The notes: generated from the letters alone by a model not told the origin. Shown: positions 2,126-64,000, counted from the first letter of the stretch. The stretch: 64,000 nucleotides of DNA from Escherichia coli (GCF_024700885.2 NZ_CP117016.1); one strand, 5' to 3'. Numbers and translations are program-made.

Positions 2126-2181
2126 ATAGCCGCCTTGTTGTAATGACAACATTTTGCGGCTATTCTTGAATTGTTCTGGTT

Positions 2182-2242
2182 CAAGATTAGCCCCCGTTCT
2201 GTTGTCAGGTTATACCTCTCAACGTGCGGGGGTTTTCTCTTT
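2182..2242 (+). ncRNA. rdl: Putative Rdl antisense RNA (antitoxin), copy 1; ends approximate
   Basis: Plus-strand stem cccccg...cggggg followed by ttttctcttt, 57-117 nt upstream of the ldr start on the opposite strand, i.e. antisense to the ldr leader. 5' end not determinable from sequence. Confidence 0.4.
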
Positions 2243-2552
2243 CCAGCAACCAATGCCACCAGGGATAGAGCCCCCGCAACATTGCGCCTCACCGGATAAC
2301 GCCGGCTTGGTGTGGATACTACGACTCAATTAATCTTCACTTCATCCCTGAAATGTATGCAATGAAGAGTGCATTCCGGTTTTTCAACAGCTGTTACAGT
2401 CGTTTCATGAGTGCTCTGGATGATGCTTCCAGCTCGGGTTGCCAATATTTACTTGTGGAAGAGATAAAGACAAAAAAGGCCGCAGGCTGTTACCCCTGCG
2501 GCCGGTTTCGGGCGCATATTGCCATCACGGCAGCCTGACGCCCGTTTTCACC

Positions 2553-2660
2553 TTACTTCCGGTTACGCCACCAGCTGACAATCGCTGCGGTAATAATTCC
2601 CGCCAGGATCGGTGCTGCCAGGTCGTGCCAGAAAATCATGGCAAACTGCGCGAGCGTCAT
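2553..2660 (-). CDS. ldr: Ldr-family type I toxin peptide (35 aa), copy 2
   Basis: Minus-strand ORF ATG(2660)..TAA(2553) translating to MTLAQFAMIFWHDLAAPILAGIITAAIVSWWRNRK. Confidence 0.8.
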   Translation of the reverse strand: MTLAQFAMIFWHDLAAPILAGIITAAIVSWWRNRK

Positions 2661-2717
2661 ATAGCCGCCTTGTTGTAATGACAACATTTTGCGGCTATTC
2701 TTGAATTGTTGATGGTT

Positions 2718-2778
2718 CAAGATTAGCCCCCGTTCTGTTGTCAGGTTTTACCTCTCAACGTGCGGGGGTTTTCTCTTT
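2718..2778 (+). ncRNA. rdl: Putative Rdl antisense RNA (antitoxin), copy 2; ends approximate
   Basis: Same hairpin+T-run as copy 1, in the second repeat unit. Confidence 0.4.
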
Positions 2779-6065: not shown

Positions 6066-7496
6066 ATGGTTTTTCATTTTTTACCGGAAGTTACCGACGT
6101 TTTGAGCCGTTTCGTTCCTCGCATTATTCCGTTTTATTTACTCTTGCTGGCGGCAGGCGGTACCGCTAACGCACAATCTACCTTCGAGCAAAAAGCGGCA
6201 AATCCCTTTGATAATAACAATGATGGTCTGCCGGATTTAGGCATGGCACCTGAAAATCATGATGGGGAAAAACACTTTGCTGAAATTGTGAAAGATTTCG
6301 GCGAAACCAGTATGAATGATAACGGGCTGGATACTGGCGAGCAGGCAAAAGCTTTCGCATTGGGAAAAGTCCGCGACGCGCTTAGTCAACAGGTTAATCA
6401 GCACGTAGAGTCCTGGCTATCACCGTGGGGAAATGCCAGTGTTGACGTCAAAGTGGATAACGAAGGACATTTCACCGGCAGTCGTGGAAGCTGGTTTGTG
6501 CCGTTACAAGATAATGATCGTTATCTCACCTGGAGCCAGCTTGGTCTTACTCAGCAGGATGATGGGTTGGTGAGCAATGTGGGCGTTGGGCAACGCTGGG
6601 CGCGCGGCAACTGGCTGGTGGGTTATAACACTTTTTATGACAATTTGCTGGACGAAAATCTTCAGCGAGCGGGCTTTGGTGCCGAAGCGTGGGGCGAATA
6701 TTTGCGACTATCGGCAAACTTTTATCAGCCATTTGCTGCATGGCATGAACAGACAGCCACGCAGGAACAACGGATGGCGCGCGGGTACGACCTGACAGCC
6801 CGGATGCGCATGCCGTTCTATCAACACCTCAATACCAGTGTCAGCGTTGAACAGTATTTTGGTGATCGTGTCGATTTGTTTAACTCTGGTACGGGTTATC
6901 ACAATCCCGTCGCGTTGAGTCTGGGATTAAATTACACCCCTGTGCCCTTAGTCACTGTGACGGCCCAGCATAAACAGGGTGAAAGTGGCGAGAATCAAAA
7001 TAACCTCGGGCTGAATCTTAACTACCGCTTTGGTGTACCGCTCAAAAAACAACTTTCTGCGGGCGAGGTTGCCGAAAGTCAGTCGTTACGTGGTAGTCGC
7101 TATGACAATCCGCAGCGAAATAATCTACCGACTCTTGAGTACCGACAGCGAAAAACGTTAACGGTGTTTCTGGCGACACCGCCGTGGGATCTAAAACCTG
7201 GCGAAACAGTGCCGCTGAAATTACAAATCCGCAGTCGTTACGGTATTCGGCAACTGATTTGGCAGGGCGATACGCAGATATTAAGTTTGACGCCGGGCGC
7301 ACAAGCCAACAGCGCGGAGGGCTGGACGCTGATCATGCCTGACTGGCAAAACGGGGAAGGGGCAAGCAATCACTGGCGATTGTCTGTAGTGGTGGAAGAT
7401 AACCAGGGGCAGCGTGTCTCCTCCAATGAGATCACGCTAACGCTTGTCGAACCGTTCGACGCATTGTCAAACGACGAACTGCGCTGGGAACCGTAA
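6066..7496 (+). CDS. ychO: Putative invasin/intimin-like outer-membrane protein YchO (start uncertain)
   Basis: 476-aa ORF with signal-peptide-like N-terminus and beta-rich body; lies between ychN and narL as in K-12. True start may be downstream. Confidence 0.6.
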   Translation: MVFHFLPEVTDVLSRFVPRIIPFYLLLLAAGGTANAQSTFEQKAANPFDNNNDGLPDLGMAPENHDGEKHFAEIVKDFGETSMNDNGLDTGEQAKAFALGKVRDALSQQVNQHVESWLSPWGNASVDVKVDNEGHFTGSRGSWFVPLQDNDRYLTWSQLGLTQQDDGLVSNVGVGQRWARGNWLVGYNTFYDNLLDENLQRAGFGAEAWGEYLRLSANFYQPFAAWHEQTATQEQRMARGYDLTARMRMPFYQHLNTSVSVEQYFGDRVDLFNSGTGYHNPVALSLGLNYTPVPLVTVTAQHKQGESGENQNNLGLNLNYRFGVPLKKQLSAGEVAESQSLRGSRYDNPQRNNLPTLEYRQRKTLTVFLATPPWDLKPGETVPLKLQIRSRYGIRQLIWQGDTQILSLTPGAQANSAEGWTLIMPDWQNGEGASNHWRLSVVVEDNQGQRVSSNEITLTLVEPFDALSNDELRWEP

Positions 7497-8147
7497 TCAG
7501 AAAATGCGCTCCTGATGCACCCATACCGCTGCTTCCACGCGAGACTTGAGCTTCATTTTCTTCAGCATGTGCTTGACGTGCACTTTTACTGTGCTTTCGG
7601 TGATGTCCAGGCGGCGGGCAATCATCTTGTTCGGCAAACCCTGGGCAATCAGCTTGAGAATATCGCGCTCGCGTGGGGTTAACTGGTTAACATCGCGTTC
7701 AGTCGTGGCACGGTTAGCGCGCAAGCTGGCGGCCAGAACCGGCGTTAATGCTTCGCTTAATACCATTTCGCCAGCAGCTGCCTGATGCAATGCTTTCAGC
7801 AGATCTTCCGGCTCCATATCTTTTAACAGATAGCCATCCGCGCCGCGTTTCAGTGCGGTGACCACATCTTCTTCATGGTTAGAGACGCTGAATACCACAA
7901 TGCGCCCGGAGAGGGACTTTTCGCGCAGTTTATCCAGCGTTTCCAGACCATTCATGCCGGGCATATTGAGATCTAACAGGATCAGATCGGGATCAAGAGA
8001 TTCCGCCAGTTCAATACCCTGTTCGCCATTACTCGCTTCGCCAACCACGGTGATATCTGGTGCCATACTGATAAGCTGTTTTACGCCAGTTCGCAGCATC
8101 GGGTGATCGTCGATCAGCAGGATAGTAGCCGGTTCCTGATTACTCAT
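7497..8147 (-). CDS. narL: Nitrate/nitrite response regulator NarL
   Basis: Start set at ATG 8147 ([25 protein letters not shown]..., 216 aa): receiver domain plus LuxR-type HTH; 8-bp overlap with narX as expected. Confidence 0.9.
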
Positions 8148-18902: not shown

Positions 18903-19616
18903 TGATGGTGGTGGGGGAAGGATTACTCAGCGCTGCGCGCTTCACCCTTCGGGTCGTTGCCTGCGGCAACGCTTTCTCGCTGGCGCTCGAGTCGCACCTT
19001 GGTCGAAGCTTCTCATCCTTCCCCGCATGGGCAGAATATTTAATTGCGGATTCGTTTGAGAGTTCACGGACTTTTGAAAAGTGATGGTGGTGGGGGAAGG
19101 ATTACTCAGCGCTGCGCGCTTCGCCCTTCGGGTCGTTGCCTGCGGCAACGCTCTCTCGCTGGCGCTCGAGTCGAACCTTGGTCGAAGCTTCTCATCCTTC
19201 CCCGCATGGGCAGAATATTTAATCGCGGATTCGTTTGAGAGTTCACGGACTTTTGAAAGTGATGGTGGTGGGGGAAGGATTACTCAGCGCTGCGCGCTTC
19301 GCCCTTCGGGTCGTTGCCTGCGGCCACGCTCTCTCGTTGGCGCTCGAGTCGAACCTTGGTCGAAGCTTCTCATCCTTCCCCCGCTTGGGCAGAATATTTA
19401 ATTACGGATTCGTTTGAGAGTTCAGGGACTTTTGAAAGTGATGGTGGTGGGGGAAGGATTACTCAGCGCTGCGCGCTTCGCCCTTCGGGTCGTTGCCTGC
19501 GGCCACGCTCTCTCGCTGGCGCTCGAGTCGAACCTTGGTCGAAGCTTCTCATCCTTCCCCGCATGGGCAGAATATTTAATCGCGGATTCGTTTGAGAGTT
19601 CACGGACTTTTGAAAG
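18903..19616. repeat. rtT: Four tandem ~178-bp repeats of the tyrT-operon distal region (rtT/tpr-type), each starting with a copy of the tRNA-Tyr 3' end
   Basis: Units begin at 18903, 19081, 19259 and 19438 (period 178-179 bp, >95% identical); each starts with gtgatggtggtgggggaaggatt, which is the reverse complement of the tRNA-Tyr acceptor/T-arm 3' end. Confidence 0.85.
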
Positions 19617-19619
19617 TGA

Positions 19620-19704
<85 letters not shown>

Positions 19705-19738
19705 AGGGGTAATTCAAATTTTGAGGTAATGCTTGAGA

Positions 19739-19823
<85 letters not shown>

Positions 19824-49873: not shown

Positions 49874-50042
49874 GATGGCAGCCTCCGCGATGAATTTGAT
49901 TAACTCACCACCGAGGTTTTCCACGACCATAAGGGTGGTGAGACGTACAGGGGTGGAAATACCGGTCATCACGGAACCCGGCCAGCCTTGCGGCTGCCCT
50001 GCACGCCCCACCATAATGCGAATGTGGCTGTGCTTAACGCAT

Positions 50043-50064
50043 AAAAAAACCGCCTGAGCGCGGT
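50043..50064 (-). terminator. Rho-independent terminator downstream of the DicF-like sRNA
   Basis: On the minus strand, aaccgcgctcaggcggtt hairpin followed by TTTTTTT. Confidence 0.55.
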
Positions 50065-50352
50065 TATGCGCCGTGAATGATTTCGGGTTTCCACGCCCGG
50101 CACCCGTTTTATGAGGTGCAGGTGCACTATAATTCCACCCGTTCTGGTTTTCAATAGCTACATTCAACATTTTCTCTACCTTTCATCACCGAAGTGAACT
50201 TTGTTGATGCGGTGCCTGGTGCCTCCAGGTGATGTTAACCAGTTAACAATTAACGCCGGATACAGAGAATCCACCCATAACACTGTTTTTGGTTTTAACT
50301 GTTCCGCGTGCGCTGAGCCGCATTCACCGCATCACAAAATTCACTTTAAAAA

Positions 50353-50405
50353 GGGCGGCAGAGCAGTCACGGAGTAAAACTGATACCGCCAAAAGTCACC
50401 AGAAA
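50353..50405 (-). ncRNA. dicF: DicF-like sRNA (cell-division inhibitor sRNA of Qin-type prophages)
   Basis: Minus-strand 53 nt TTTCTGGTGACTTTTGGCGGTATCAGTTTTACTCCGTGACTGCTCTGCCGCCC differs at one position from the K-12 DicF sequence as I recall it; followed by a T-run. Confidence 0.65.
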
Positions 50406-58012: not shown

Positions 58013-58223
58013 TTTCATATTGGCGAGGTGACGGGAGTTAAGTAGAATGGCTGCGGGTGCTTGAGGCTATCTGTCTCAGGCATGAACACCAAAGGCAGAT
58101 AGAGAAAAGCCCCAGTTAACATTACGCGTCCTGCAAGACGCTTAACATTAATCTGAGGCCATATCTATGCTCTACACACGTAGGTTAGCCTCTTACGTGC
58201 CGAAAGGCAAGGAGAAGCAGGCT

Positions 58224-58379
58224 ATGAAGCAGCAAAAGGCGATGCTAATCGCCCTGATCGTCATCTGTTTAACCGTCATGGTGACGGCACTGGTAACGAG
58301 GAAAGACCTCTGCGAGGTACGAATCCGAACCGGCCAGACGGAGGTCGCTGTCTTCACAGCTTACGAACCTGAGGAGTAA
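58224..58379 (+). CDS. hok: Hok/Gef-family type I toxin (51 aa), near-identical to HokD/RelF
   Basis: MKQQKAMLIALIVICLTVMVTALVTRKDLCEVRIRTGQTEVAVFTAYEPEE; the in-frame upstream extension in the track (from 58167) is not the toxin start. Confidence 0.85.
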   Translation: MKQQKAMLIALIVICLTVMVTALVTRKDLCEVRIRTGQTEVAVFTAYEPEE

Positions 58380-59885: not shown

Positions 59886-60266
59886 ATGACCGAGCGCATA
59901 GAATTTGTTTTACCTTACCCGCCGACGGTGAACACTTACTGGCGACGCCGTGGCAGCACATATTTTATCTCGGAGGAGGGAAAGCGTTATCGCCGGGCTG
60001 TGGCGCTTATTGTTCGCCAGCAGCGGCTGAAATTAAGCCTGTCCGGAAGGCTGGCGATAAAGGTGATTGCAGAGCCACCGGATAAGCGTCGTCGCGACCT
60101 GGACAATATCCTGAAAGCACCGCTGGATGCGCTGACGCATGCGGGAGTGTTAATGGACGATGAGCAGTTTGATGAAATCAATATCGTTCGTGGTCAGCCA
60201 GTATCTGGTGGACGTCTGGGGGTGAAGATTTACCCCATAATGCATGAAGAGCAGGTCAAAAAATGA
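59886..60266 (+). CDS. rusA: RusA-family Holliday-junction resolvase
   Basis: 126-aa ORF with MTERIEFVLPYPPTVNTYWRRRG and the catalytic-region motif DKRRRDLDNILKAPLDALTHAGVLMDDEQF. Confidence 0.75.
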   Translation: MTERIEFVLPYPPTVNTYWRRRGSTYFISEEGKRYRRAVALIVRQQRLKLSLSGRLAIKVIAEPPDKRRRDLDNILKAPLDALTHAGVLMDDEQFDEINIVRGQPVSGGRLGVKIYPIMHEEQVKK

Positions 60267-61084
60267 AACTGGAAGATTTACCGAAATACTACTCCCCAAA
60301 ATCCCCTGGCCTGACCGATGCATCGGCCTCAACGTCAAAAGATGCGCTGAGTATCACTGATGTGATGGCCGCGCAGGGCATGACACAGAATCGGGCTGAG
60401 ATGGGGTTTTCTGCGTTCCTGGGGAAAATGGGCATCAGTATGAATGACAGGGCGCGGGCAACAGAATTACTGGCAGATTATGCACTCAGTCGGTGCGATC
60501 GTGTGGCGGCGTTGAGAAAACTTCCGGCAGAAATAAAACCGGTAGTGATGCGCATTATGGCTTCGTACGCTTTTGAGGATTATGCCCGCAGCGCAGCGAG
60601 TAAAAAGCAGTGCCCCTGTTGCCGAGGGGAAAAATTTATTGAAGGCGAAGTTTTTACAAACAAGGTTCAGTATCCGGATGGCAAGCCGCCAGTATGGGCA
60701 AAGTGTACGAAAGGTGTGTATCCGTCTTACTGGGAAGAATGGAAAAAAATTCGGGAGGTGGTGAAAGTTTCTTGTCCTGAATGTAAAGGGAAGGGGGAGA
60801 TTTCCACTGCCTGTAAAGACTGCCGTGGGCGTGGTGTTGCCATTCATCGTGAAGAGTCGGTAAAACGTGGTATGCCTGTTATCAGAGACTGCCAGCGTTG
60901 TGGTGGTCGTGGCTGTGAAAGACTACCATCAACGGAGGCATTTAATGCCATACGCAAAGTGACGAGTGCTATCACGCTTGATACGTGGAAAAAATCAGTG
61001 AAACGCTTTTACGATACGTTGGTGGTTCGGTTTGACATTGAAGAGGCATGGGCGGAGCGGCAGTTAAAGAGGGTAACGCGATAG
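60263..61084 (+). CDS. Putative late-gene antiterminator (Q-like) with four DnaJ-type CxxCxGxG zinc-finger repeats
   Basis: Position (after rusA, before a strong terminator and the late region) is that of Q; contains CPCCRGEK, CPECKGKG, CKDCRGRG and CQRCGGRG. Confidence 0.5.
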   Translation: MKLEDLPKYYSPKSPGLTDASASTSKDALSITDVMAAQGMTQNRAEMGFSAFLGKMGISMNDRARATELLADYALSRCDRVAALRKLPAEIKPVVMRIMASYAFEDYARSAASKKQCPCCRGEKFIEGEVFTNKVQYPDGKPPVWAKCTKGVYPSYWEEWKKIREVVKVSCPECKGKGEISTACKDCRGRGVAIHREESVKRGMPVIRDCQRCGGRGCERLPSTEAFNAIRKVTSAITLDTWKKSVKRFYDTLVVRFDIEEAWAERQLKRVTR

Positions 61085-61165
61085 TGTTGTTGATTTTTCC
61101 CGAATCTGTGGTAAATTTGCTCTAACGATGGGCGTTTTATGCCTGACGTTAGAAGATTTTTTACA

Positions 61166-61188
61166 CCCCGCCGCCTGGCGGGTTTTTT
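61166..61188 (+). terminator. Rho-independent terminator downstream of the Q-like gene (tR'-like)
   Basis: cccgccgcctggcggg hairpin followed by TTTTTT. Confidence 0.65.
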
Positions 61189-61310
61189 ATGACTGAAATC
61201 GCGTCAGTACAGTAAACGCGCTGGTGGCGGTGAATACCTGTCTTTCAGCTTGCTGGCTTTTTCGACAAGAGTTATTGGTGTGTCACGTTAACCGGAAAAG
61301 GGAAAAAGAC

Positions 61311-61508
61311 ATGCTAAAACAGCAGGATATGACAGAAACCGCCAGAGTGGTGTTTAATGAATTAAGCGTTACCGAACCGGCGACAGTCGGGGAGATAGCG
61401 CAGAATACTTACCTTTCACGCGAACGCTGCCAGTTAATACTGACCCAGCTGGTTATGGCGGGTCTGGCAGACTATCAGTTCGGTTGTTACAGACGCCTTC
61501 AGTCCTGA
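61311..61508 (+). CDS. Small hypothetical protein (65 aa)
   Basis: ATG at 61311 after AAGGGA (MLKQQDMTETARVVFNELSVTEPATVGEIAQN...); ends inside a terminator hairpin. Confidence 0.4.
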   Translation: MLKQQDMTETARVVFNELSVTEPATVGEIAQNTYLSRERCQLILTQLVMAGLADYQFGCYRRLQS

Positions 61509-61518
61509 AGGCTTTTTT
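61494..61518 (+). terminator. Rho-independent terminator
   Basis: gccttcagtcctgaaggc hairpin followed by TTTTTTATTT. Confidence 0.65.
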
Positions 61519-61658
61519 ATTTGTGGTAAATGGGCGGCTGGTGGGTGTTAGGGGCACCCACCAGCCATCTGCTCATGCGTTGGGTTCACAAGCAAACCTC
61601 AGGCCCACTGCTTTGCGCAAAAGCAGAATGAGCCTATCAGAGACAGGCTTAATGATCC

Positions 61659-62708
61659 ATGCTTAATACTGTAAAAATATCCAGTTGTGAGTTAATCAAC
61701 GCCGACTGCCTGGAATTTATCCGGTCGTTACCCGAAAATTCTGTTGACCTGATAGTCACGGACCCGCCGTACTTTAAAGTGAAGCCTGAGGGCTGGGATA
61801 ACCAGTGGAAGGGCGACGATGATTACCTGAAGTGGCTGGACCAGTGTCTGGCGCAGTTCTGGCGGGTGCTGAAACCTGCCGGAAGTCTTTACCTGTTCTG
61901 TGGTCATCGCCTGGCATCTGATATCGAAATCATGATGCGTGAACGCTTCAGTGTGCTGAACCATATTATCTGGGCGAAGCCGTCCGGACGCTGGAACGGA
62001 TGCAACAAGGAAAGCCTGCGGGCGTATTTCCCCGCCACAGAGCGCATTCTGTTCGCGGAACATTATCAGGGGCCGTATCGTCCGAAAGATGCCGGGTATG
62101 CGGCGAAGGGCAGTGCACTGAAACAGCATGTGATGGCCCCGCTGATTTCTTACTTTCGTGATGCGCGCGCGGCCCTGGGGATAACGGCAAAACAGATTGC
62201 AGATGCCACAGGAAAGAAAAACATGGTGTCGCACTGGTTCAGTGCCAGTCAGTGGCAGCTACCGAATGAAAGCGATTATCTGAAATTACAGGCGCTGTTT
62301 GCCCGGGTGGCAGAAGAGAAGCATCGGCGTGGTGAACTGGAAAAGCTCCACCACCAGCTGGTGGATACGTATACCTCACTGAACCGGCAGTATGCGGAGC
62401 TGCTGAGTGAATATAAACATCTGCGGCGGTATTTTGGCGTGACGGTGCAGGTGCCGTATACCGATGTGTGGACGCATAAACCGGTGCAGTTCTATCCCGG
62501 GAAACATCTGTGCGAAAAACCGGCAGAAATGCTGCAGCAGATAATCAGCGCAAGCAGTCGTCCGGGTGACCTGGTTGCAGATTTTTTCATGGGGTCGGGT
62601 TCAACGGTAAAAGCGGCGATGGCACTGGGGCGTCGTGCGATTGGCGTTGAACTGGAGACCGGACGTTTTGAGCAGACAGTCAGGGAAGTTCAGGATTTAA
62701 TCGTTTGA
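61659..62708 (+). CDS. Orphan DNA methyltransferase (beta-class N6-adenine/N4-cytosine type)
   Basis: Motif IV DPPY (LIVTDPPYF) near the N-terminus and AdoMet motif I FFMGSGST near the C-terminus (beta-class order); no adjacent restriction endonuclease gene. Confidence 0.8.
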   Translation: MLNTVKISSCELINADCLEFIRSLPENSVDLIVTDPPYFKVKPEGWDNQWKGDDDYLKWLDQCLAQFWRVLKPAGSLYLFCGHRLASDIEIMMRERFSVLNHIIWAKPSGRWNGCNKESLRAYFPATERILFAEHYQGPYRPKDAGYAAKGSALKQHVMAPLISYFRDARAALGITAKQIADATGKKNMVSHWFSASQWQLPNESDYLKLQALFARVAEEKHRRGELEKLHHQLVDTYTSLNRQYAELLSEYKHLRRYFGVTVQVPYTDVWTHKPVQFYPGKHLCEKPAEMLQQIISASSRPGDLVADFFMGSGSTVKAAMALGRRAIGVELETGRFEQTVREVQDLIV

Positions 62709-62757
62709 AACGGATGAGATTGCAGAATTAATTACGCACCATTATTATTCTGCTTCC

Positions 62758-62833
62758 GGCCCTTTAGCTCAGTGGTGAGAGCGAGCGACTCATAATCGCC
62801 AGGTCGCTGGTTCAAATCCAGCAAGGGCCACCA
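62758..62833 (+). tRNA. Prophage tRNA with CAU anticodon (Ile2/lysidine-type, ileZ-like; Met not excluded)
   Basis: 76 nt folding into a cloverleaf by hand: acceptor GGCCCTT/AAGGGCC, D-stem GCTC/GAGC, anticodon loop CTCATAA, T-arm GCTGG-TTCAAAT-CCAGC, 3' ACCA. Confidence 0.8.
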
Positions 62834-62933
62834 TCACAAACCGCCATTAGCTTATCAGGAAGAGCAGACGACACGATAACAGGGTTGTTGGTGCGGGGGC
62901 GGGTCCCCGATGGCGGTCCATTATCGGTATTCA

Positions 62934-63010
62934 GCGTTGTTAGCTCAGCCGGACAGAGCAATTGCCTTCTAAGCAATCGGTCACTGGTTCGAATCCAGTA
63001 CAGCGCGCCA
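62934..63010 (+). tRNA. Prophage tRNA-Arg (UCU)
   Basis: 77 nt: acceptor GCGTTGT/ACAGCGC, D-arm TAGCTCAGCCGGACAGAGCA, anticodon loop CTTCTAA, T-arm ACTGG-TTCGAAT-CCAGT, 3' GCCA; related to argU-type tRNAs. Confidence 0.8.
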
Positions 63011-63117
63011 TATTCATTCTTCCAGATTCCTTTCGGCAGAGCCTTATACTGAAATATACCTGGCTCAGGATATTGTTGAAAATATTATATGTTTGTCAAA
63101 AATAAAAGTTCTGTTAA

Positions 63118-63474
63118 GTGTTGATTGAGTGTTTGTTATACGGTCTAATGGTTTTTTCAGCATTAAATATTTATCATTCATATGGTGTGGGTAGAGTGAA
63201 TATTGATGAGGCGTCGGGGTGTTTCATCCTTAGGCAGCGTATTGATATAGTCAATGCAGAACGAGCAAAGGCCTTCAGCCGTTTGACAGTTTTGTTCTGT
63301 ACTCCTGATCGTCTTTCGGGAAGAGACGTTATTATTCTGAATAGTGATGCTATACAGAGGGTTTGCGATGAGTTCATGGTGGCTAATTCAGAATTATTTG
63401 CTCTTGTTCAGGAGTACAACAGAATAGCCAGGACCTGTGGTATGGATGAACTTCGGATTACTCATCTGGGGTAG
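63118..63474 (+). CDS. Hypothetical AT-rich cargo ORF (118 aa) in the post-tRNA slot
   Basis: ORF directly downstream of the tRNA pair; low GC; no recognisable motif (MLIECLLYGLMVFSALNIYHSYGVGRVNIDEASGCFILRQRIDIVNAERAK...). Start uncertain (alternative Met at 63148). Confidence 0.4.
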   Translation: MLIECLLYGLMVFSALNIYHSYGVGRVNIDEASGCFILRQRIDIVNAERAKAFSRLTVLFCTPDRLSGRDVIILNSDAIQRVCDEFMVANSELFALVQEYNRIARTCGMDELRITHLG

Positions 63475-64000
63475 ATACATATCTGGATTATCACCGGTTA
63501 CGGTAAAAAGTGATTGCTTACTGTTTTTGTGAATGGCATTGCAGCAGCCGGATAATGTCAGTGCTGGCTGACGGTGTGCTGGTGGCGGGTGTGGTGGTTG
63601 CTGCTTTCCCGTTGCTGAAAAAGAAAACGCCAGACTGTTAGCCGGGTATCAGTTAGCGGGAGAAATTTTTAAATACTTCACAATTCAGGCGGTTGACTGT
63701 TGTCTGGTTTGCGGGGAGTTTGTTAAAAGAAACTGGCATGGTGAATCCCCCTGTGCGGAGGGGCAATCAGCGAGTAGGTATATGGGATAATCGCGGATTC
63801 AGGTGCTGGTACTGAATTCACCGGGAGGCACCCGGCACCATGCAATGGCACATAGCGCCACTCTCCAGCCCCTCTCCGGAGGGGCTGTTTATATTGATTT
63901 TGTCAGATGTGAGTAAACTCCTTATGGACTTTGTTGTTTTAGCCCATAAGGACATATTTGCAGAGTGCAACGGTTATTAAAGCATTCATTCAATACGTTA

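Follow-up and report, generated by a model that had tools for sequence, protein, structure and literature searches.

Several small RNAs (sRNAs) related to the element analysed here have already been described in prophages of pathogenic Escherichia coli. EcOnc27 of the O157 strain Sakai was recovered by Hfq-CRAC, with a peak over its last ~80 nt, and gives northern bands of ~235 and 247 nt, the longer of which is destabilised without Hfq (PMC4104026). For eight prophages of Sakai, Tree et al. (2014) reported in the same work "convergent sRNA pairs 3' of PR' in the moron insertion site" (PMC4104026). The strain EDL933 contains 11 STnc100 copies that are transcribed in LB; one of them (STnc100_4) was verified by northern blot, and some carry ribosome footprints with a coverage value of up to 3.2 (PMC5331693). 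Overexpression of sRNA103 of EDL933 raises the fimZ and espA transcripts, directly or indirectly (PMC7873438, PMC12711010). In a machine-learning analysis, the strongest predictors of haemolytic uraemic syndrome included sequence variants in the element located downstream of stx2a (PMC12711010), and STnc100 RNA is present in outer-membrane vesicles (PMC12370729). The sRNAs PasD1 and PasD2 of EPEC are abundant RNAs of 172-173 nt that have many RIL-seq partners on Hfq; their seed (UGUGAG) and their RIL-seq chimeras are situated in the 3' region equivalent to the linker of the RNA studied here (PMC8550237). Because deleting hfq barely shifts the levels of PasD (log2 fold change of +0.55 and -0.18; PMC8550237), it is uncertain whether the scaffold of the RNA studied here depends on Hfq. 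A common ancestor of PasD and STnc100 has been proposed (bioRxiv 10.64898/2026.05.13.724894).

The window, i.e. the whole stretch of 64,000 nucleotides of E. coli DNA that was analysed, ends within a lambdoid prophage. Its positions 63475-64000, referred to below as the flagged stretch, had been singled out in an earlier note as a structured, non-coding zone ahead of the holin gene. The observation itself is confirmed, the stretch being mostly non-coding and structured, and the interpretation given to it is partly supported. We consider that the flagged stretch probably contains two small accessory (moron) genes of the prophage, namely a DUF3927/TciB-like gene truncated at its 5' end and an autonomous sRNA of the STnc100 family, of the Hfq/base-pairing type. 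The genes are found in the order RusA, Q antiterminator (273 aa, 60263-61084; Pfam PF03589, E 9e-51), a small ORF, a DNA methyltransferase, tRNA-Ile2 (CAT), tRNA-Arg (TCT), an ORF of 118 aa, DUF3927 and STnc100. The 118-aa ORF (63118-63474), located between the tRNA genes and DUF3927, is unannotated, has no match in Pfam or NCBIfam and is found, among phage records, only in mEp460. In the genome AR_0069, which is 100% identical over 62700-64000, the region past the window carries a convergent iraM-like gene and an esterase gene of the SASA family (NanS-p-like), then, ~2.5 kb from the end of the window, a class II holin gene, and YdfR. The flagged stretch is part of the variable ("moron") region that separates the Q antiterminator from the lysis cassette and, as stated in the earlier note, it precedes a holin gene. 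In AR_0069, YdfR is followed directly by lom and by a pseudogene of a tail fibre, so this prophage is defective.

The Rfam model RF02076 (STnc100) matches the element with 132.4 bits (gathering threshold of 47, E 3.3e-30), from position 1 to position 206 of the 206 positions of the model and without truncation, in a cmscan search of 61000-64000 that was repeated on the whole window. With the same model, the Sp5 element located 3' of stx2B obtains 207.7 bits, and the two RNAs align throughout the core. The element is a member of an already known and curated Rfam family, STnc100; it is related to EcOnc27 and sRNA103 and, more distantly, to PasD. No other Rfam family, riboswitches included, matched 61000-64000 at E <= 1. 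The Rfam match identifies the two hairpins of the stretch, ccccctgtgcggagggg (63747-63763) and cagcccctctccggaggggctg (63866-63887, followed by TTTATATTGATTTT), as the helix P1 and the intrinsic terminator of the STnc100 RNA, respectively; both had been located to within one base in the earlier note. No larger gene encloses these elements and their homologues are transcribed, two points on which the earlier note had made its reading depend. The 29-nt core is found once in the window and in 0 of 100 shuffles. The stability of the fold is modest (z = -1.86; 13 of 200 shuffles fold equally well) and, since this stability is unremarkable in itself, the assignment to STnc100 is based on homology and covariation and not on energy. 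The 1.3-kb stretch that contains the element has a match in 3336 of the 5426 E. coli genomes searched, and the last 1.3 kb of the window is present at >=99% identity in more than 600 E. coli genomes. Annotation pipelines, e.g. Bakta, already label STnc100.

Table 1. Features located between the Q antiterminator gene and the end of the window (positions in the window).
Feature	Position	Strand	Basis or details
Lambda-like late promoter pR'	61090-61117		-35 TTGATT, N16, TGgTAAATT, TGCTCT, pause element AACGATGGG; alignment with lambda
tR'-like terminator	61167-61190		3' of pR'
Gene of a small membrane protein of the DUF3927 (TciB-like) family, 43 aa, GTG start	63510-63641	+	ORF list, Pfam, RefSeq
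Candidate sigma-70 promoter	63700-63729	+	-35-like TTGTCT 63700-63705, 18-nt spacer, extended -10 TGtTAAAAG 63721-63729
STnc100-family sRNA gene	63707-63896	+	Extent set by the Rfam RF02076 match
Structured and conserved 5' scaffold, ~108 nt	63736-63843	+	Fold and covariation
P0 closing helix	63736-63743 with 63836-63843	+	MFE fold, covariation
P1 (hairpin 1)	63748-63751 with 63760-63763	+	MFE fold
Pseudoknot	63766-63771 (AUCAGC, just 3' of P1) with P3 loop 63805-63810 (GCUGGU)	+	Complementarity
P2 region, variable	63770-63794	+	
P3	63795-63802 with 63812-63819	+	MFE fold, covariation
P4	63821-63825 with 63831-63835	+	MFE fold
46-codon frame, rejected as a gene	63840-63980	+	AUG invariant; frame crosses the terminator into unrelated flanking DNA
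Variable linker AAUGGCACAUAGCGCCACUCUC, candidate seed and Hfq-contact region	63844-63865	+	Mosaic alignment, scaffold-by-cassette table
Intrinsic terminator (hairpin 2)	63866-63897	+	Stem 63866-63887, then U-rich tail UUUAUAUUGA
Convergent iraM-like anti-adaptor gene, 3' end (last 25 codons and stop)	63922-64000	-	Continues to the equivalent of 64257

The structure was analysed from about 90 STnc100 copies gathered from IMG/VR with the 14-mer CATGGTGAATCCCC, to which were added PasD1, PasD2 and divergent copies from Escherichia albertii, Superficieibacter electus, Enterobacter cloacae and Pantoea stewartii. A scan of genome contigs with the pattern GGTGAATCCN{55,85}CGGGAGGC was too loose: among the matches listed, 9 of 124 passed the closing-helix filter, eight being real family members and one (L232) an apparent chance match in G+C-rich DNA. 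The minimum-free-energy fold of the window RNA gives P0, P1, P3, P4 and the terminator, in agreement with the helices of Rfam. In an alignment of 16 diverse sequences, 96.8% of the cells of the nested helices are paired (24 sequences gave a similar value), and this pairing drops to 36-47% when the helix partners are slid. Compensatory changes are observed at 4 of the 8 pairs of P0 and at 7 of the 8 pairs of P3, values that were reached by 0 of 500 shuffles. P1, P4 and the junction GGUGAAUCC are invariant from Escherichia to Pantoea.

An additional pairing, which is absent from the Rfam consensus and of which no description was found in the consulted papers that mention STnc100, joins the segment that follows P1 to the loop of P3. 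Because MAFFT sets the two main classes of sequences one column out of register, the duplexes of this pseudoknot were scored sequence by sequence in Python, together with non-cognate and shuffled controls. Six classes of sequences preserve this complementarity: AUCAGC with GCUGAU or GCUGGU; CUGGUG with CACCAG, UACCAG or CACCGG; ACCAGU with ACUGG or GGCUGG; AAUGAUC with GAUCAUU in PasD; GCUAGG with UCUAGC in Enterobacter; and AGCCACAA with UUGUGGCU in Pantoea. The median duplex energy is -9.6 kcal/mol for the cognate pairs vs -2.2 kcal/mol for the non-cognate pairs, and only 1.2% of the 5' segments, once shuffled, give a duplex as strong as this cognate median. Three variants (L002a, L061d and L067) have a nested helix in place of the pseudoknot. 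Covariation in these alignments supports a 5' scaffold of ~108 nt that includes the pseudoknot. The words "pseudoknot", "promoter" and "DUF3927" are all absent from the 2026 preprint on the Pas sRNAs (bioRxiv 10.64898/2026.05.13.724894).

Immediately upstream of the scaffold, about 40 variants share a promoter-like motif with the same spacing. Across genera, a -10-like hexamer precedes the start of P0 by 6-8 nt; it reads TAAAAG, TAAAAA or TAGAAA in Escherichia (often with TGn before), TAAGAT in Superficieibacter and TAGAGT in Enterobacter, and the corresponding element of Pantoea is TGtTATTTT. The Escherichia copies have a TTGnCT or TTGATT motif 17-18 nt farther upstream. Moreover, the 5' end of PasD2, as estimated by RNA-seq, aligns exactly to the G of GCAUGGUG. 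For the window sRNA, we infer from these comparisons a -35 element at 63700-63705, a -10 element at 63724-63729 and a start near G63736. The hexamers are weak, and the consensus promoter scan did not list them. The two northern bands of EcOnc27 exceed the length predicted for a start at the closing helix, which suggests, by analogy, a longer form starting ~55-75 nt upstream; should this longer form exist, the A-rich stretch UUAAAAGAAAC would alternatively belong to the RNA rather than to a promoter. A sigma-54 promoter at CTGGCATGG was considered and is not supported, the -12 GC element being absent by eye.

The 3' part of the RNA is composed of a linker and a terminator that exist in at least 20 unrelated versions. 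The common versions are found on both main scaffold types, among them the cassette of the window (AAUGGCACAUAGCGCCACUCUC and the CCCCUCUCCGGAGGGG terminator), which indicates that scaffold and cassette have recombined. Some copies, e.g. L007, combine an STnc100 scaffold with a PasD-like 3' region. The terminator stem of the window comprises 9 pairs, of which 7 are G-C, and a loop of 4; it comes first in the list of the terminator scan and corresponds to the 3' hairpin of the Rfam consensus. The earlier note had already described this second hairpin together with its T-rich tail. The U-tract located 3' of the stem is interrupted (UUUAUAUU). Seven terminator-like sites are present in 61000-64000, vs 3.7 +/- 2.0 in shuffles. 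The copies can also be repeated in the same locus: paired copies 467-468 nt apart occur in 11 loci, and arrays with a spacing of 257-273 nt occur in L061, L120 and Superficieibacter, L061 displaying four consecutive copies at 6956-7937 and a fifth ~2 kb upstream (Rfam). Each of the tandem copies has its own promoter-like element and its own terminator. This arrangement, like the convergent genes found after the copies (iraM-like in the window, AsxR in Sp5), speaks for an autonomous gene.

The invariance of P1, P4 and GGUGAAUCC across genera exceeds what a simple base-pairing sRNA needs and hints at an additional or different function; it is the chief point for which the simple sRNA model gives no explanation. 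We tentatively put forward the possibility that the invariant pseudoknotted 5' domain (P0, P1, P3, P4, GGUGAAUCC and the pairing of the post-P1 segment with the P3 loop) is a dedicated module on which seed-plus-terminator cassettes are swapped, constituting a plug-and-play sRNA platform in the prophages of Enterobacterales. If so, the partner of the domain might be a small ligand or a conserved protein of the host or the phage, or the domain might be a nuclease-resistant cap, and the cassettes would be attached to it by recombination, sometimes in tandem arrays with different seeds.

By analogy with EcOnc27, STnc100_4 and PasD, we infer that the window RNA is expressed and associated with Hfq. 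In the lysogen, it would be transcribed most likely from its own weak sigma-70 promoter, starting at or near the closing helix (~63736), a longer form that begins 55-75 nt upstream being also possible. As the covariation shows, the RNA folds into the conserved pseudoknotted scaffold, which is followed by the linker of ~22 nt and by the terminator. By analogy with the homologues, the 3' linker and the terminator would bind Hfq and the linker would pair in trans with RNAs of the host or of a prophage; a stabilising or partner-binding role may fall to the invariant scaffold. During lytic growth, the Q-modified polymerase coming from pR' would, by analogy with the biology of lambda, read through the sRNA terminator toward the lysis genes.

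The location of the element would also be compatible with a role in cis, which we judge unlikely. The terminator, perhaps aided by the scaffold, would act as an insulator that shields the esterase and lysis genes of the lysogen from read-through from tRNA or moron promoters; only the Q-modified polymerase would pass, and the stable RNA would be a by-product. The element is indeed on the late-operon strand and always between pR' and the lysis genes (including in PMC4104026), its terminator stem is strong and G+C-rich, and tandem copies would stack several terminators. However, a bare terminator needs neither an invariant pseudoknotted scaffold of 108 nt nor a promoter-like element of its own, and a diversification of the linker by cassette exchange is not expected for an insulator. 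In addition, the homologues engage many RNAs on Hfq, and the next gene is here convergent, so that there is little to insulate immediately downstream.

More doubtful still is the proposal that the scaffold is an aptamer-like or protein-binding domain, working either as a riboswitch over its own terminator or as a decoy or sponge, with the pairing of the linker being secondary. The succession of a promoter, a structured domain of ~108 nt, a linker and a terminator resembles the layout of a transcriptional riboswitch; P1, P4 and GGUGAAUCC do not vary from Escherichia to Pantoea while P0, P3 and the pseudoknot covary, and the levels of PasD are nearly Hfq-independent. Nevertheless, the Rfam search gave neither a riboswitch nor any other family at E <= 1, and the gene located downstream is not conserved: it can be convergent, or its place can be taken by a further copy of the RNA. 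With linker cassettes that are unrelated to one another, a conserved antiterminator pairing is not evident, and the RNA that ends at the terminator builds up to high abundance. An autonomous sRNA of the Hfq/base-pairing type is the reading that we retain.

The 43-aa ORF that precedes the sRNA matches Pfam PF13064 (DUF3927) with 92.7 bits (cut-off of 25, E 1.3e-26, profile positions 7-53 of 53) and is annotated as WP_001438304.1 by RefSeq in a 100% identical genome. The earlier note had read the hydrophobic peptide MSVLADGVLVAGVVVAAFPLLKKKTPDC, from ATG 63555, as a possible small lysis regulator. The peptide is present and is the C-terminal part of the 43-aa protein; it belongs to a real family of small membrane proteins (DUF3927/TciB-like), and its reading as a lysis regulator is not supported. 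Compared with the full-length homologues of 52-54 aa, such as TciB of phage JLK-2012 (54 aa) and the E2348/69 proteins (52 aa), the window copy is devoid of the first hydrophobic segment. The nucleotide homology with JLK-2012 begins only at 63542, which indicates that a mosaic junction near this position has cost the gene its 5' part. PasD1 and PasD2 are also situated ~41 nt 3' of a DUF3927 gene; DUF3927 followed by an sRNA therefore represents a recurring pair. In Stx2 phages, stx2B occupies the upstream place of DUF3927.

The second short frame, of 46 codons, is found as announced 3' of GGGAGG (63823-63828) and is not conserved as a protein: its equivalents in 130 copies span 1-46 codons with unrelated tails, and the frame has no match in Pfam or NCBIfam. 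Its AUG and the GGGAGG motif are invariant because they are base-paired residues of the scaffold. The frames that have the same linker cassette share the common start MQWHIAPLSSPSPEGL and then diverge along with the flanking DNA. On the opposite strand, the translation of the window end is the C-terminus of a 111-aa protein in L003; this iraM-like gene matches NCBIfam NF007393 with 162 bits (cut-off of 121), and the RefSeq annotation agrees. A remnant of STnc100 beside the iraM gene of K-12 was considered and discarded, the homology being in the iraM coding region only (71% nucleotide identity). The small lysis regulators expected by the earlier note were not found in the flagged zone, where the Pfam and NCBIfam matches are DUF3927 and IraM only; no ORF of 63475-64000 matched a holin, antiholin or lysis family in these two databases.

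The late promoter that had been expected in the flagged stretch is located 2.6 kb upstream, directly after the stop codon of Q. The -10 sequence TAAATT and the promoter-proximal pause element AACGATGGG are identical in the alignment to those of lambda, in which the aligned sequences are the well-established pR' and its pause element. Within 63475-64000, the scan gave only one weak site (63527-63556), and no promoter of the pR' type with a pause element and tR' was detected. Even though the zone is upstream of a holin gene, the hydrophobic peptide comes from a real small membrane-protein family and some EDL933 copies of STnc100 have ribosome footprints (value of up to 3.2), it is very improbable that the stretch holds a late promoter and lysis-regulator peptides (the hydrophobic peptide and the 46-codon frame), since pR' with its pause element and tR' is elsewhere, the 46-codon frame is not conserved and its GGGAGG and AUG are paired in the scaffold, no ORF matches a holin, antiholin or lysis family, and the holin gene is 2.5 kb farther on, behind two other genes.

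The finding itself is ordinary, and an STnc100 homologue is found directly after stx2B in Stx2 phages. For experiments on the family, the analysis adds a covarying pseudoknot, a probable promoter from which transcription would begin at the closing helix, the recombination of 3' cassettes, the existence of tandem arrays and the linkage with DUF3927.

Among the known systems of the late region, the pR'-tR' transcript of lambda (6S RNA) and StxS of the Stx phages are likewise short terminated RNAs that are read through by the Q-modified polymerase. The pR'-tR' element is situated directly after Q (here 61090-61190, outside the flagged stretch) and is unrelated to STnc100 in sequence and structure. 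The anti-sRNAs AsxR and AgvB share with STnc100 a location in the moron zone of lambdoid prophages and the joining of a conserved part to a variable targeting part; unlike STnc100, they are RNAs of 51-60 nt that are encoded on the opposite strand, and their sequences show no relationship to it. No match to these anti-sRNAs (RF02703, RF02702) was obtained at E <= 1 on either strand of 61000-64000 or in L003 3500-13301, a coverage that reaches 6 kb past the end of the window, and the same tool detected AsxR in Sp5. IpeX of the K-12 prophage DLP12, which we assumed to be a possible STnc100 relative, was also considered and set aside, as the Q-to-lysis region of DLP12 gave no STnc100 match at the gathering threshold.

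PasD1 and PasD2 (EPEC E2348/69; EcOnc13 in EHEC) have a 5' scaffold homologous to that of the window RNA, with GCAUGGUGAAUCC, P1, P3, the pseudoknot and GGGAGGC. As in the window, DUF3927 is upstream and esterase or holin genes are downstream, the RNA ends with a terminator and its overall size is similar. Unlike the window RNA, PasD is below the gathering score of STnc100 and the 3' strand of P4 is missing. The window RNA lacks the seed UGUGAG that in PasD precedes the GGCUGCGCA terminator, and its linker and terminator are unrelated to those of PasD.

The closest system is represented by STnc100/EcOnc27 (Sp5)/sRNA103. In Sp5, a distance of 75 nt separates stx2B from the start of the element, and the convergent AsxR lies directly next to the element. 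The score with the STnc100 model is 208 bits for Sp5 vs 132 bits for the window, where the P2 region is shorter and the linker cassette is different (AAUGGCACAUAGCGCCACUCUC in the window). The pseudoknot is formed by AUCAGC and GCUGGU in the window and by CUGGUG and UACCAG in Sp5. The upstream neighbour is DUF3927 in the window vs stx2B in Sp5, and the convergent downstream neighbour is the iraM-like gene in the window vs AsxR in Sp5. Both RNAs display a full-length match to the model, the scaffold helices, invariant P1, P4 and junction, and a 3' terminator. In both prophages, the sRNA gene is located after Q, pR' and the tRNA genes and before the esterase and lysis genes, on the strand of the late operon.

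The STnc100-family sRNA gene of the window belongs to a family whose copies are also found in tandem. Four consecutive copies are present in one IMG/VR contig (L061 6956-7937), and Superficieibacter electus (locus L164) has a minus-strand array of three with a spacing of 257 nt. Pairs of copies spaced by 467-468 nt were detected in 11 loci (L002 3561-4218 and ten others). Every tandem copy displays its own promoter-like element and its own terminator, with a differing linker. Five IMG/VR loci (L007, L018, L035, L036 and L054) contain hybrid RNAs, composed of a typical STnc100 scaffold including P4 and of a PasD-like 3' region (...UUUAUUUCCGGCUGCGCAUGGCGCG). These hybrids bridge two named families, STnc100 and PasD.

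The sRNA scaffold is overlapped by an antisense annotation, the PGAP (RefSeq) pseudogene "hypothetical protein, incomplete" (63726-63851, minus strand). PasD2 and PasD1 of E2348/69 likewise overlap with a comparable pseudogene or hypothetical gene on the opposite strand. These antisense gene calls over the STnc100 scaffold, PasD1 and PasD2 are probably artefacts of ORF calling in a structured RNA gene. A second minus-strand feature is the iraM-like gene that faces the sRNA (see table). Its product of 111 aa is recognized by NCBIfam with a score of 162 bits, and the gene shares 71% nucleotide identity with K-12 iraM, in the coding region only. Its stop codon and the U-tail of the sRNA are separated by only ~25 nt. 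As no terminator is evident on the minus strand, transcription of the iraM-like gene may read through into the sRNA in antisense. Past the window end, in the 100% identical AR_0069 genome (L003 9823-12903), lom and a truncated tail-fibre gene come immediately after the holin and YdfR genes. This prophage lacks endolysin, Rz, terminase and head genes and is therefore defective.

Features of the window outside the sRNA, including the coordinates of the other Rfam matches
Feature	Position in window	Strand	Context
Two rdlD antitoxin RNAs	2173-2774		Rfam match
Four RtT repeats with two tRNAs (tyrT-like locus)	18906-19823		Rfam match
C4 antisense RNA, isrK and DicF, clustered	49931-50404	-	Rfam match
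sok antitoxin RNA	58055-58229		Rfam match; upstream of Q region
Lambda-like late promoter pR' and tR'-like terminator	61090-61190		directly 3' of Q stop codon
65-aa ORF	61311-61508	+	between pR'/tR' and methyltransferase gene
Two tRNA genes	62758-62833 and 62934-63010		3' of methyltransferase gene
118-aa ORF	63118-63474	+	A+T-rich stretch between tRNA-Arg and DUF3927 gene
iraM-like anti-adaptor gene, prophage-borne	63922-64000, continues in L003 7223-7558	-	convergent with sRNA

For the 65-aa ORF, labelled hypothetical protein in RefSeq, the match to the TrmB helix-turn-helix family is weak and falls short of the threshold (E 0.0024); this ORF has a terminator-like hairpin of its own at 61495-61512. 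The 118-aa ORF, a candidate gene, is not annotated by RefSeq in the identical genome and has no match in Pfam or NCBIfam; among 50,697 phage records it is present in mEp460 only (97.5% identity). Concerning the tRNA genes, one encodes tRNA-Arg (TCT) and the other, with the anticodon CAT, is assigned to Met by ARAGORN and to Ile by RefSeq (ileZ-like tRNA-Ile2). The tRNA set of Stx phages at the equivalent position is ileZ-argN-argO, whereas the pair of the window lacks the middle gene argN.

The late promoter pR' comprises the -35 element TTGATT, the extended -10 element TGgTAAATT and the pause element AACGATGGG, and the tR'-like terminator (61167-61190) consists of CCCGCCGCCTGGCGGG followed by a T run. 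No Rfam match was reported in the window for the short transcript, predicted at ~65-70 nt, that would extend from pR' to tR'. This predicted RNA would be the analogue of lambda 6S RNA or StxS.
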